Assembly: GCF_003334785.1 (NCBI RefSeq)
Contig: NZ_QOWV01000017.1
Reading direction: 5' to 3' (one strand)
Length of the DNA stretch: 64,000 bases
Source of the DNA: Escherichia coli
GTDB taxonomy: Bacteria; Pseudomonadota; Gammaproteobacteria; Enterobacterales; Enterobacteriaceae
A program made the position numbers and the translations under genes. Below the pieces are notes generated by a model, which made no database searches, was not told where the DNA came from, and saw nothing but the letters and a program-made list of their open reading frames with translations. The stretch's first letter is position 1; each line of letters opens with the position of its first letter. Below, piece after piece: positions 26,107 through 31,200 of the stretch.

Positions 26107-26700
26107 ATGGAAAAATACCTGCACCTGTTAAGTCGGGGAGATAAAATTGGCCTGACATTGATTCGTCTGAGTATTGCAATTGTTTTTATGTGGATTGGGT
26201 TATTAAAGTTTGTCCCTTACGAGGCAGACAGCATTACACCATTCGTCGCAAACAGTCCACTAATGTCGTTCTTTTATGAACACCCGGAAGACTATAAACA
26301 GTATCTGACTCACGAAGGCGAATACAAACCAGAAGCAAGGGCATGGCAAACGGCCAATAATACCTATGGTTTTTCCAACGGTCTTGGCGTCGTGGAGGTG
26401 ATTATTGCTCTGCTGGTTTTGGCTAATCCTGTCAATCGCTGGTTAGGTTTATTGGGAGGACTGATGGCATTTACCACGCCGCTGGTAACACTCTCATTTT
26501 TAATCACCACCCCGGAGGCATGGGTACCCGCATTGGGTGACGCTCATCATGGTTTCCCTTATTTATCCGGTGCTGGTCGCCTGGTATTGAAAGATACTCT
26601 GATGCTGGCAGGTGCAGTCATGATAATGGCAGATTCGGCGCGGGAAATTCTTAAACAACGCAGTAATGAATCCAGTTCAACGTTAAAAACTGAATATTGA
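26107..26700 (+). CDS. rclC: inner-membrane protein RclC (DUF417)
   Basis: 197 aa from MEKYLHLL; multiple TM helices. Confidence 0.8.
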   Translation: MEKYLHLLSRGDKIGLTLIRLSIAIVFMWIGLLKFVPYEADSITPFVANSPLMSFFYEHPEDYKQYLTHEGEYKPEARAWQTANNTYGFSNGLGVVEVIIALLVLANPVNRWLGLLGGLMAFTTPLVTLSFLITTPEAWVPALGDAHHGFPYLSGAGRLVLKDTLMLAGAVMIMADSAREILKQRSNESSSTLKTEY

Positions 26701-27256
26701 TAATCCGAACACTGTCTGTTGTTCACTTTTTCAGGCGTCAGGCCCCCTTTCTGATGATGAAGCCTGACGCCATATTACCGGAGATATGACAGAGTGAAGA
26801 TCAATATCACTCCCTGTTAAAAGGTTTTTGTCGTCTTAGGTAAAATACATGATTAATATCAATCATGTATTTTTACAGCAAGACAACCACGAACAAATTC
26901 AGGATTAAAATGTTTTACCGACTCCCCAACATAACCCAAATCAAGCGAACTAATTTGTGCCATTTCTTTATCTGTCAGTGAGAAATCGATTTTTGATGGG
27001 CATCTGCAATACTCTGAAGCAGACTATACGGAAAATTCCACTGTCAGTCCCTCCATTAGGCATGAACAATGAGTCTACGTTAAAACGTAACCTCAAAGTA
27101 GTATGTGGATTTTGATATCACTTATGCAAAAAATTCATTAATAATGTAGGACTGAAACCTCTCTATTTTCGGGGACAACGAAGCAGACGCTACCAGTGCT
27201 TTTGCCTTCGCCCTTGCTATTTTTGATACACTTAGGGCCCAGGGTATAACGAAAAT

Positions 27257-28141
27257 GTGCGATATGACAAAGAATTAACGGAGAATGAGATGATCAGGCA
27301 GAAGATTCTACAGCAGCTCCTGGAGTGGATTGAGTGCAATCTTGAGCACCCTATTTCAATCGAAGATATCGCACAGAAATCTGGCTACAGCAGACGCAAC
27401 ATCCAGCTTCTGTTCCGAAATTTCATGCATGTGCCTTTGGGAGAATACATTCGCAAACGAAGGCTTTGTCGTGCCGCCATTCTTGTCCGGCTCACCGCGA
27501 AATCTATGCTTGATATTGCACTCTCTTTGCATTTTGATTCACAGCAGTCATTCAGCCGCGAATTTAAAAAGTTATTCGGCTGCTCTCCCCGTGAATACCG
27601 CCACCGTGATTATTGGGATCTCGCAAATATCTTCCCTTCTTTTTTAATACGTCAACAGCAAAAGACGGAGTGTAGATTAATCAACTTTCCTGAGACACCT
27701 ATTTTTGGCAACTCATTTAAATATGACATTGAAGTGTCGAATAAATCACCGGATGAAGAAGTCAAACTACGACGTCATCATTTAGCCAGATGTATGAAGA
27801 ATTTTAAGACGGATATCTATTTCGTTTCCACGTTTGAACCGTCAACAAAATCGGTCGATTTGCTCACGGTTGAAACTTTTGCTGGTACGGTATGTGAATA
27901 TGCTGACATGCCAAAAGAGTGGACAACGACCCGAGGACTTTATGCCTCTTTCCGTTATGAAGGAAACTGGGGAAATTATCCTGACTGGGTGCGTAACATC
28001 TATCTGATAGAGTTACCTGCCAGGGGGTTAGCCAGAGTGAACGGCAGCGATATTGAGCGCTTTTATTACAATGAAGATTTCGTAGAAAAGGATGGCAATG
28101 ATGTTGTTTGCGAAATTTTTATTCCCGTTCGTCCGGTTTAG
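27257..28141 (+). CDS. ykgA: Rob-like regulator: AraC-type HTH N-domain + GyrI-like C-domain
   Basis: 294 aa ORF; N-terminal dual HTH similar to MarA/Rob; C-terminus CEIFIPVRPV resembles the Rob C-terminus; an internal start at MIRQKIL is possible. Confidence 0.75.
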   Translation: MRYDKELTENEMIRQKILQQLLEWIECNLEHPISIEDIAQKSGYSRRNIQLLFRNFMHVPLGEYIRKRRLCRAAILVRLTAKSMLDIALSLHFDSQQSFSREFKKLFGCSPREYRHRDYWDLANIFPSFLIRQQQKTECRLINFPETPIFGNSFKYDIEVSNKSPDEEVKLRRHHLARCMKNFKTDIYFVSTFEPSTKSVDLLTVETFAGTVCEYADMPKEWTTTRGLYASFRYEGNWGNYPDWVRNIYLIELPARGLARVNGSDIERFYYNEDFVEKDGNDVVCEIFIPVRPV

Positions 28142-28169
28142 TTGGTCACTATCTCTTATTGAGTTTTAT

Positions 28170-28205
28170 CCTTGCCTGATACTATTTAATCAGTATCAGG
28201 CAAGG
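28170..28205. terminator. perfect 14-bp inverted repeat between convergent ykgA and eaeH
   Basis: ccttgcctgatact-atttaatc-agtatcaggcaagg read directly; no strong U-tract on either side, so function uncertain. Confidence 0.4.
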
Positions 28206-28280
28206 TATTCAGTGAATAATGGCGTTGAATATTTCAACACCATTATTCTTTATTAGATCGTAACTTTCATACTATTCAAA

Positions 28281-31200
28281 TTATGGCATCTCCTCCTCGC
28301 CATTTTCAGTCTCTGCAGCAACGGCGTTAATTGTCACCTTCACAGGCGTCATTTCGTACCCGCCATACGTCAGTGCGTTGAATGTGAACGTATAGACACC
28401 TGGCTTGCTGGTACTAAATGTACGCGTGATTTTCCCACCTGAGAAATGGTCAGCCTTCGACGGCAGGAATTGATAATCCTTCTCCGTCACTCCTTCCGGA
28501 GCCTCAATGTCGACCCACATACTTCCTCCTACGGGATTGACTCCCGCCATCAGGGTAACCGTCATTGTTGCAGTAGTCTTCCCGTCCGCCACCAGAGAAT
28601 CTACACGTTCTGGAGATGCGGCGAGCACCGCGTTTTTATCATCCGCGACGAATTTAGATTCAGCAGTTTTCGTCGATACCTGACCGTTGGCCTGTTCCAC
28701 TTTCGCCGTGAGTGTATATGTCGCTGCGATAGTGGTAGAGCCGGTGAAAACAGCCTGTCCTTGCTCATTAGTTTTCGCCGTCCCTTTAGGATCCAGAACT
28801 AAATTTTCCGAGCTGGCAGTCAGCGTCACGTCGCTATCCTTCAACAGGTTGTTATTGGCATCAGTCACCGTAACTTTATACGTCTGTTTGGTTTTGCCAT
28901 CCGCCACTGCACGGTTGCCAATCACCTCAATACTGGAGATGGTCGCCGTAGTCTTATCGGCCACAAACGTTACAGACTGCGCATTCGAAGGCTGGTCATT
29001 TCCTGCCGACGCCGTGATCTCATACGTTCCGGCAGTCACGGAGACCACTTTCAGTTCCGCTTTACCCTCCTTGTCGGCGTTCACCATGATATTACCGTCT
29101 GCAAGCGGTTTGACGCCCCGAGGCAGATTAAAGACGACCACAGCGCCAGGCAGAAGGTTGCCGTATTGATCCTTAACCGTTGCCGTCAGCGTAAAGGCAT
29201 CATTGTCGTTTGCCACTTTTGGCGTGCTGCCATCAACCTCCAGGGTCGCCTGACCGGTACTGAAATCCGCCTTGAATTTCACCGTAACCGTCTTCTGAGC
29301 ATTATTCACTGAGGCCGTGATGCTGTGTTCCCCCGCAACCGTTGACATAAGCTCAATGTCCACTTTCCCTGCCGCATTGGTTGTTACTGTATTCCCCGTC
29401 TTGCTGGTCACACCCTGCGGTAAAGTCAGCGTAACTTCTTGCCCCTGCAACGGGTTACCATAGCTGTCCACGACGGTCAGGGTTATCTGGTTAGCAGACT
29501 GTCCATTAGCCAGTTGGTTATTAACCTTCACTGTCATATCACGAATCTCAGCCTTAGATGCGTCACCTGCAACGTTCAGCACCAGTGGCTGAGCAACGGC
29601 ATTTTGGCCGTTCACTCGCGGCATCACAGACAACTGACCCGCGGCAGATCCCAGCGTTAAGGTCGCCACGTAGACCCCATTACCTTTCTCTGTCCAGTTT
29701 CCTGCTGAAGGACGCTCACTCCCCGTGCTGGCGGCACCGCTAAACACTGGTGCATCTGGCTTCAGCCCGGTGACCGGGTTCCCGTACGCATCCTTCACGG
29801 TGAAGGTGAGTTCCGTCGTCATTTTGACGGTCGGAGCCTTATTGTCCGCAACAAGCGTAGAGTTCGCTGATGACATCTCTCCGGCGATGACCGTCAACTG
29901 CGCGGCTTCGGTGGCTGCTGGCTGGCCGTTGAAGAGCGGCATGACACGAAGCTCGCCCGTCTTTCCGCCTGTAGTTAACGTAGCAACATAGGAACAGTCA
30001 CCTTTTTCGGTCCAACTGGAAACGGTCGCCCCTTCAGAGGCGGTCCCCGTCAAACTTGCCGACAACGAAAGACCACTGATAGTGTTGCCATGTGCATCTT
30101 TTGCAATAAGCGTCACGGTTGTGCTTTCGCCGGCTTTTACGTGATCTCCTGCGACAGAGACTTTCGACTGGTTTGAAGATAACGCATCAGCCACCACGGT
30201 TACTTTTGCCGCATTTGCTGCCGCATCCTGTCCATTTAGCTTCGGCATAACTTCTAATTCACCCGCCGTAGAGCCGAGAGTAATCTGCGCAGTCCACGTC
30301 CCATCACCATTATTTGTCCAGCCAGATGCCGTAGAACCTACAGCAGCGGCACCCGCTAATGACGGCGCTTCCGGCGTGAGGCTGGTCACAGGGTTGTCAT
30401 AGGCATCTTTTGCCGTCCAGATTGCCGTAACTGTACCGCCAACCACCGGTTTATCAGGATTCAGGGTGATGGACGAATGTGCTGCATCAAGCGGACCGGC
30501 AACAAACTTCAGCGTTTGTTGTAATGTGCCCAGCTGATACTGCTCGCTGAAAGCACGCACAACAACGTTTCCGGCACGGGTCGAAGAAACCGTGGCGCTG
30601 TAAACGCCTGGTTTTATTTCCGAAATGGCACCAACGGTTACACCATTAGTGTCTTGCGGAACAAATCGCAAGCGGCTGGCTTCTCCCGTCACCGGATTAC
30701 CCTCGGAGTCCACCGCAGTCAACGTCAACGTATAGGCTTGCTGACCATCAGCAACCACATCACCTGACGGCTCGTTAGCGCTCAGGGTGGAGTTTGCCAC
30801 ATCCATCATCGTGGCCCGCAGTTCTGCAGTGACGGTTTTGCTCATGCCATCAACGCTAACAGTAATCGTTGCCTCACCTGACTGCGTTCCGGTAGTAAAG
30901 ACAGACTGATACACCCCTGCTTCAGTTTCGGTGAACTCACCCAGTGTTGGCTTTGCCTGTGATTTAGTGGCCTTCAGGGAACGAGTCACAATATTTCCAG
31001 CCGGTTTGAAGGCTAGTTCAGTCTTGATCTGATCTTTCATGCCCGTGACTGGCTGCCCCTCGGCGTCGCGCAGAGACAGCACCAGCGGTCTTTGCTCATT
31101 ACCGTTAGCAAGCATTTGAATACGGCTCTGACCGTCAAGCGTTAACGCCGTGCGATCGGCGCTCATACCTGCTCCGGTAATGACCACCTCTGTCTGCACG

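Follow-up and report, generated by a model that had tools for sequence, protein, structure and literature searches.

A conserved marbox-like site at the fdeC promoter as the proposed target of YkgA, a Rob-like regulator of Escherichia coli

Rob of Escherichia coli joins a MarA-like double helix-turn-helix (HTH) domain to a GyrI-like domain, whereas its relatives MarA, SoxS and RamA are single-domain proteins controlled by abundance. Other regulators also fuse AraC-type and GyrI-like domains, among them STM3175, the Salmonella albicidin resistance protein (Protein Data Bank (PDB) entry 7R3W), which sequesters the drug. YkgA has been counted among the homologues of MarA, SoxS and Rob since 2000; according to a paper of 2007, neither its function nor its targets had been identified by then (PMC2064960). 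It is also already known that ykgA and the adjacent fdeC, which encodes an inverse-autotransporter adhesin, are pseudogenes in K-12. Here we analyse ykgA and its surroundings in a 64,000-nucleotide stretch of E. coli DNA (contig NZ_QOWV01000017.1; hereafter the window), and propose, with a probability of about 0.55, that YkgA would be a ligand-gated, Rob-style activator of fdeC, acting through a conserved site in its promoter. The protein-coding features are as follows.

27290..28141, + strand: ykgA coding sequence, 283 amino acids and stop (RefSeq start, orthologue N-termini; the mechanical open reading frame reaches GTG 27257).
27290..27607, + strand: AraC/MarA-type DNA-binding domain, residues 1-106 (Pfam, Rob and SoxS alignments, AlphaFold2 helices).
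27392-27427, + strand: recognition helix 3, residues 35-46 (AlphaFold2 model, residue mapping).
27542-27577, + strand: helix 6, residues 85-96 (AlphaFold2 model, residue mapping).
27668..28138, + strand: GyrI-like putative effector-binding domain, resembling the Rob C-terminal domain (Pfam, Foldseek, residue mapping).
28281..32537, − strand: fdeC, inverse-autotransporter adhesin of 1,418 amino acids, convergent with ykgA; the proposed target (open reading frame list, RefSeq).

YkgA resembles Rob over its whole length. Pfam reports HTH_18 (2.4e-19), HTH_AraC (2.8e-11) and a GyrI-like domain (3.4e-8) spanning 155 of 155 model positions. In a phmmer search of PDB sequences, Rob (1d5y, 7vwy) is the top match with E of about 4e-38 over residues 16-292, the whole length, followed by SoxS (E=5e-27; 46% identity in the fold alignment), RamA and MarA, which cover the first 117 residues only. 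An AlphaFold2 model built with 25 family sequences (pLDDT, the predicted local confidence score, 90.8; predicted template modelling score, pTM, 0.84) has seven helices in the DNA-binding domain, and Foldseek places Rob 1d5y_A and 7vwy_G first (template modelling (TM) score 0.77–0.79 over ∼290 columns, full length), with STM3175, BrlR, BmrR, CTR107 and SbmC ranking after Rob by way of the GyrI-like half. Numbered from ATG 27290, YkgA residues carry the Rob residue numbers across the whole N-terminal domain, and the C-terminal 'CEIFIPVR' aligns with 'CELLIPIR' of Rob, a shared C-E-x-x-I-P-(V/I)-R ending. An earlier account made from the letters of the window without database searches (the sequence-only reading) had described a MarA/SoxS/Rob-type dual HTH, a GyrI-like C-domain and a Rob-like C-terminal motif; Pfam, phmmer and AlphaFold2 with Foldseek agree with it. 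YkgA thus has the double-HTH, seven-helix domain of the MarA/SoxS/Rob subfamily of AraC/XylS regulators together with the two-domain architecture of Rob, including the pocket glutamate (Rob E262, YkgA E256), which is nearly invariant in the family.

It is nonetheless set apart from Rob, because identity between the two is ∼30% and its scores against the NCBIfam RobA equivalogs lie far under the cut-offs (191.5 bits against 380 for NF012228; 169.3 against 426 for PRK15121); by these measures YkgA is a full-length Rob paralogue, not a Rob orthologue. Rob W164 falls within a three-residue, Rob-specific insertion and has no counterpart in YkgA, and the acidic loop of Rob, residues 187-193, is not acidic in YkgA. 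The distribution of YkgA is narrow and patchy and adjoins adhesin genes, while Rob is a core housekeeping locus. Unlike MarA, SoxS and RamA, whose marbox consensus its predicted operator fits, YkgA has a sensor domain and different A-box reading residues. STM3175 has the same domain composition but a different domain arrangement (TM 0.37, 20% identity), and nothing points to drug sequestration by YkgA.

The proposed operator lies upstream of fdeC, on the opposite strand to ykgA.

32751..32770, − strand: marbox-like 20-mer CTTGCACAAAAAGCTAAATT, proposed YkgA operator, at about −50 to −31 of the fdeC promoter (alignment, consensus match).
32727..32732, − strand: TATAAT −10 hexamer, 18 nt 3′ of the 20-mer (sequence and alignment).

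When ∼600 bp 5′ of fdeC were aligned from five taxa, two adjoining blocks, TTGCACAAAA(A/T)GCTAAAT and AATAAAAATATAATCCCGC, proved near-invariant over all five. Within them the 18-mer TTGCACAAAAAGCTAAAT and the TATAAT that follows are nearly invariant among E. coli, Salmonella and a further genus (locus L009), while synonymous divergence (dS) of the coding sequence exceeds 1.7 for E. coli against Salmonella. The 20-mer agrees with the marbox consensus AYnGCACnnWnnRYYAAAYn at 19 of 20 positions, position 1 being the only mismatch. Where a −35 element would stand, 17 nt before the −10, the sequence reads AAATTT, which matches the consensus at none of six positions. With TATAAT numbered −12 to −7, the site spans −50 to −31 and places G at −47, A at −45, G at −38 and A at −35/−34, the positions at which Rob contacts fall on the class II micF promoter (PMC9178005). 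As read from the sequence, the layout of the fdeC promoter (site, 18 nt, TATAAT, no −35) is that of Rob-activated micF, the same class II geometry. Martin and colleagues reportedly found in 1999 that class II marboxes are forward-oriented and lie 18–19 bp from the −10. Matches to the marbox consensus by itself are not enriched in the window (2 against 1.15 expected), and the argument therefore rests on the position and conservation of the site. The simplest reading is that YkgA-family proteins bind the marbox-like site and that fdeC would have a class II, activator-dependent promoter. Such a promoter fits the behaviour of FdeC, which cells do not express in vitro and which contact with host cells induces; the study that reported this noted 'putative regulatory genes' in the locus and left them untested (Nesta et al., PMC3324786).

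We envisage that YkgA would bind the 20-bp site as a monomer, with helix 6 reading the GCTAAA half-site as Rob does and helix 3, which has Arg36/Leu40 for Trp36/Arg40, reading the GCAC half-site in a family-specific way. At a promoter with a good −10 and no −35, the bound protein would replace the −35 contact through sigma70 region 4 and the C-terminal domain of the polymerase alpha subunit (alpha-CTD), and so turn on fdeC, whose adhesin product is not otherwise made in vitro. A small molecule, sensed by the GyrI-like C-terminal domain, would gate YkgA as in Rob.

The 18-mer recurs beside other YkgA-like genes. All fetched loci of YkgA relatives were searched with up to 3 mismatches, and 100 dinucleotide shuffles served as control: there were 14 matches in 208 kb, against a shuffle mean of 0.3 and maximum of 3, and no match fell in 139 kb of unrelated loci or in the remainder of the 64-kb window. 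The matches are listed by locus.

All Escherichia fdeC promoters and L009: 0 mismatches; fdeC-type promoter.
L010: 0 mismatches; 5′ of an EAL-domain gene, with the same −10 spacing and an unrelated leader.
Salmonella (L003): 1 mismatch; fdeC-type promoter.
Siccibacter (L013): 1 mismatch; 3′ of the regulator gene.
Klebsiella (L007): 3 mismatches; 5′ of a decarboxylase/permease operon convergent with the regulator.
Budvicia (L021): 2 and 3 mismatches; one in the regulator's own promoter, the other downstream.
Citrobacter (L032): 3 mismatches; the regulator's own promoter.
E. coli island (L034): 2-3 mismatches, five copies in 20 kb; an island with two Rob-like genes.

In most cases where downstream sequence was read, TAnnnT follows the box after 18–19 nt. 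The boxes 3′ of the regulator genes in Siccibacter and Budvicia have no convincing open reading frame after them. The E. coli island (contig DADDBJ010000044.1, 1-20039) is an accessory one whose two Rob-like genes are divergent paralogues; it also carries an EAL-domain gene, a chaperone–usher fimbrial operon, a BigA-like autotransporter gene and an H-NS paralogue, and two of its five 18-mer copies lie inside a 4.5-kb stretch without called genes.

Gene order also ties the regulator to the adhesin. In other Escherichia (L004–L006; 89% identity) the YkgA gene is convergent with a 1,415-amino-acid inverse autotransporter gene and has an intact aldo-keto reductase gene on its left, with no rcl operon. 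Salmonella enterica (L003; 67%) has the same convergent pair, flanked by hipA and alpha-amylase genes, and so has L009 (64%), where the adhesin gene is split in two. At L031 (64%) the regulator gene faces a large, convergent gene that runs off the contig, a probable fifth pair. Inverse-autotransporter genes lie close to the regulator on a Siccibacter plasmid (L013; 44%) and one does so in a Citrobacter island (L032; 42%), while the regulators of L007, L010, L011/L012, L033 and L034 (36–64%) stand beside fimbrial operons or EAL-domain genes, or in mobile islands. A scan of species-representative genomes added little breadth, its real relatives being three Escherichia loci and one Budvicia locus only. 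The sequence-only reading was right in placing ykgA next to the reactive-chlorine (rcl) operon and fdeC (rclR and rclABC lie on the left, and fdeC is convergent on the right); it offered either neighbour as the target, and of the two the comparative evidence favours fdeC and offers nothing for rcl. The regulator–adhesin pairing outlasts changes of flank, and the rcl pairing does not, rcl not having been found beside ykgA in the other Escherichia species or Salmonella examined.

Such a mobile island in Salmonella enterica (contigs L011/L012) holds a YkgA-like gene of 47% identity, near a fimbrial usher gene and beside CBASS-like (SMODS and S_4TM) and Pycsar-like (cyclase and PycTM) defence genes.

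Contacts taken from the Rob transcription-activation complex (PMC9178005) were mapped onto YkgA and compared over a set of 24 family members. All seven sigma70 region 4 contacts (L74, D75, L78, D83, S84, Q85, Q86) are identical in Rob and YkgA. At the B-site, Q86, R90, K93, K94 and R55 are identical to Rob, and T87, T89 and T99 are Ser in YkgA; the residues that read the B-box are widely kept (Q86 in 24 of 24 members, R90 in 21). At the A-site, Y33, S34, Q39 and G51 are as in Rob, while K35, W36, H37 and R40 of helix 3 have become R35, R36, N37 and L40. As Arg35 is found in 24 of 24 members and Arg36 in 23, down to 34% identity, with position 40 variable, the pattern indicates that R35/R36 is a signature of the family and not decay. 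The sequence-only reading had staked itself on the conserved DNA-contacting residues being kept, which holds for the B-box readers Gln86 and Arg90 and fails for Trp36 and Arg40, so that its refuting condition is in part triggered.

Several points weigh against the proposal that YkgA activates fdeC. The links from YkgA to fdeC and to the site are drawn from comparative evidence only; ykgA and fdeC, being convergent, have no common promoter region. The 18-mer query was derived from the fdeC locus itself, and the promoters of Escherichia, Salmonella and L009 are orthologous, which leaves about eleven of the 14 matches independent. No box with up to 3 mismatches is found 5′ of E. coli ykgA, where conservation does not extend beyond Escherichia, nor is there one directly 5′ of the Citrobacter inverse-autotransporter gene. 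Three of the six alpha-CTD contacts of Rob are kept (W13, G32, Y33), and Q3, G5 and D9 are changed, as judged from sequence. The readers of the A-box (GCAC), Trp36 and Arg40, to which the A-box specificity of MarA and Rob is attributed (PMC8279559; also PMC9178005), are Arg36 and Leu40 in YkgA, a departure from the subfamily. The window copy, finally, carries a rare missense change, E228G, its exact 60-mer being present in 6 of 1,478 genomes with the allele. Autoregulation of ykgA in E. coli was likewise considered and set aside, as no box was found 5′ of the gene.

The helix-3 changes give rise to the most serious rival, that the fdeC promoter simply carries a marbox used by MarA, SoxS or Rob and that YkgA reads another sequence and controls genes elsewhere. 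The site is an excellent canonical marbox, 19 of 20 with its GCAC intact, and resembles the listed MarA chromatin immunoprecipitation sequencing (ChIP-seq) sites (PMC5684230); because YkgA lacks the Trp36/Arg40 pair that reads GCAC, those proteins could be the real binders. We nevertheless consider this doubtful. The box is strongly enriched near YkgA-like genes whose surroundings are otherwise unrelated, with some copies in the promoters of the regulators themselves, and the near-invariant Arg35/Arg36 leave room for another mode of reading: Arg36 shares a face of helix 3 with position 40, one helical turn away, and its side chain could still extend to the GCAC guanine or groove. No eaeH/ykg site is among the MarA ChIP-seq sites listed for enterotoxigenic E. 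coli H10407 in the main text of that study (PMC5684230). This absence is weak evidence, for H-NS could occlude the site. A 2014 title by Easton and colleagues is said to report control of FdeC by H-NS and temperature. It is also possible that several regulators share the fdeC site.

That YkgA instead regulates the adjacent rclABC, or answers oxidative or chlorine stress, is suggested by the adjacency of rcl and ykgA on the same strand in E. coli and by the grouping of ykgA with superoxide-stress genes by homology (PMC9220930); with no box anywhere near rcl, no rcl beside ykgA in the other Escherichia species and Salmonella examined, a dedicated regulator, rclR, encoded divergently from rclA, and a decayed aldo-keto reductase gene between rclC and ykgA, we find it barely credible, and rcl was rejected as a target for want of synteny and of a site. 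The remaining possibility is that ykgA is dispensable or on its way out, or that the window copy is impaired, so that the open frame yields no active regulator here. K-12, without the C-terminal domain, shows no known phenotype, truncated forms are common among database clusters, and Gly228 of the window copy stands where every orthologue at least 63% identical has Glu; one O157:H7 strain (MD2019EC2705C4; L016, 7169-11421), moreover, has fdeC annotated as frameshifted with an internal stop, beside an intact ykgA. Against decay, the ratio of nonsynonymous to synonymous substitution rates (dN/dS) stays at 0.1–0.25 for either domain from Escherichia to Salmonella, the gene is full-length in no fewer than 85% of complete E. 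coli genomes, and position 228 varies in more distant members, so that Gly may be tolerated. We judge loss of function improbable, and return to the activation of fdeC by YkgA as the reading we prefer.

The population data behind this judgement come from complete genomes. K-12 MG1655 is collinear with the window through 27944 and again from 31662, with IS3 between. Missing from it are the final 65 ykgA codons (219-283), both hairpins of the intergenic region and 3.4 kb from the 3′ end of fdeC, and RefSeq labels both K-12 genes partial pseudogenes.

27945..31661, no strand: segment of 3,717 bp absent from K-12 MG1655, with IS3 in its place (K-12 alignment).
27971..27973, + strand: ykgA codon 228, GGA (Gly), with GAA (Glu) in the common allele; a rare missense change beside the near-invariant Trp227.

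Of 5,426 complete E. coli genomes only 312 have the ykgA–IS3 junction, whereas ykgA is covered over at least 80% of its length in at least 4,612 of them, and the window-type allele crosses the breakpoint unbroken in 1,483. Intact ykgA is the rule in E. coli, and K-12 the exception. When the window was compared with B2, B1 and E strains, E. coli STEC367, another Escherichia species and Salmonella, dN/dS for ykgA was 0.11–0.26 overall and 0.08–0.25 for the C-terminal domain; for the DNA-binding domain it was 0.05–0.08 in comparisons beyond E. coli (Escherichia sp., Salmonella). Low values in both domains out to Salmonella indicate that both are under purifying selection. The K-12 copy is shorter, as the sequence-only reading had stated, its C-terminus cut by the IS3-associated deletion, and the suggestion that the full-length form may be functional gains support from these figures for the gene in general. 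At the DNA level the window gene is one nucleotide (27972, giving E228G) from that of the common phylogroup-A protein WP_000621009.1.

Within E. coli the gene is a mosaic (window compared with L014–L017 and L004). Over the first 120 codons dS between phylogroups is near 0, past codon 120 it is 0.19–0.33 against the window allele, and at residues ∼200–240, including a 2-codon deletion, the window gene is closer to the allele of another Escherichia species than to other E. coli. This pattern suggests recombination at the 3′ end, beside fdeC.

The frame from which ykgA is read, 27257..28141 (+ strand), is open for 294 codons from GTG, without frameshift or internal stop, exactly as the sequence-only reading had given it; its start, however, is likely to be ATG 27290 rather than GTG 27257, because a GGAG Shine-Dalgarno sequence sits 7 nt 5′ of that ATG, orthologue N-termini all read M(I/V)R(Q/K)K, and the 11-codon GTG extension is not conserved outside Escherichia. 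RefSeq starts the identical gene of strain VE-F10 at ATG 27290 (283 amino acids; WP_021544824.1, 'helix-turn-helix domain-containing protein').

27223..27250, + strand: candidate ykgA promoter, TTGATA, 16 nt, TATAAC (read off the sequence and alignment).

Conservation of this candidate is limited to Escherichia in the alignment, and a consensus promoter scan did not flag it; consensus scans for promoters and terminators around ykgA and 5′ of fdeC were uninformative.

Between the fdeC promoter and the fdeC start codon lies a long leader with structures of its own.

32538..32726, − strand: conserved fdeC 5′ leader, ∼190 nt from the −10 to the ATG (alignment, RNAalifold).
32625-32651, − strand: leader hairpin 1, 9 bp, with one compensatory U-A to C-G change in L009.
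32604-32624, − strand: leader hairpin 2 and U-run, terminator-like, GC-rich and followed by UUUUUCU, with one compensatory change.
32575-32598, − strand: leader hairpin 3 (RNAalifold).
32535-32572, − strand: invariant block around the Shine-Dalgarno sequence (alignment).

The leader hardly varies between genera (L003, L004, L009, L014, L018 and L020 included), and its 3′ two-thirds is more conserved than the fdeC coding sequence. RNAalifold pairs the leader U-run (UUUUCUGA) with the Shine-Dalgarno region (UCAGGAAA), and on this model the leader could be an attenuator and/or a fourU-like thermometer that masks the ribosome-binding site. Most of its base pairs never vary, so covariation support is thin, and a permissive Rfam scan of 26600-33600 returned no family matching it.

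Two further structures and a gene remnant complete the locus.

28170-28205 and 28214-28248, no strand: two strong hairpins between the convergent ykgA and fdeC stops (z = −6.3 and −9.0; 14-16 bp stems).

Both hairpins lack a canonical U-run and probably mark the ends of the two transcripts, and the microRNA-type matches that the same Rfam scan returned on them were dismissed as spurious. Between rclC and ykgA lies an aldo/keto reductase remnant (26859-26987, − strand), a gene that is intact (289 amino acids) in B2 strains, O157 strains and other Escherichia species.

An intact ykgA by itself is an ordinary, already annotated gene of a known kind, and without the proposed fdeC link its intactness would be unremarkable, most E. 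coli having it intact and RefSeq annotating it. What is new, as hypotheses on a comparative basis, is that an operator and a target can be predicted for YkgA and that the whole family is linked to adhesin islands; a full-text literature search found no paper that ties ykgA, a marbox, or SoxS or Rob to eaeH/fdeC. More tentatively, the YkgA-like family may be a set of Rob paralogues that serve as ligand-gated switches for acquired surface-structure genes (horizontally acquired inverse-autotransporter adhesins and fimbriae) and EAL-domain genes through a shared operator, with a host-derived ligand and the leader as a second checkpoint. A host-derived ligand, if that is true, would explain why FdeC appears only on host-cell contact, and an attenuator or fourU-like leader would add a second, possibly temperature-dependent checkpoint on fdeC.

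One likely reason why the function of YkgA was long missed is that K-12, the usual test strain, lost the ykgA sensor domain and most of fdeC. FdeC (EaeH), an adhesin conserved broadly in E. coli and a vaccine candidate, is silent in culture (PMC3324786), and the full-text literature searched offered no explanation of its activation. The predicted operator and promoter make the YkgA–fdeC link directly testable, and may provide a way to switch FdeC on in vitro.

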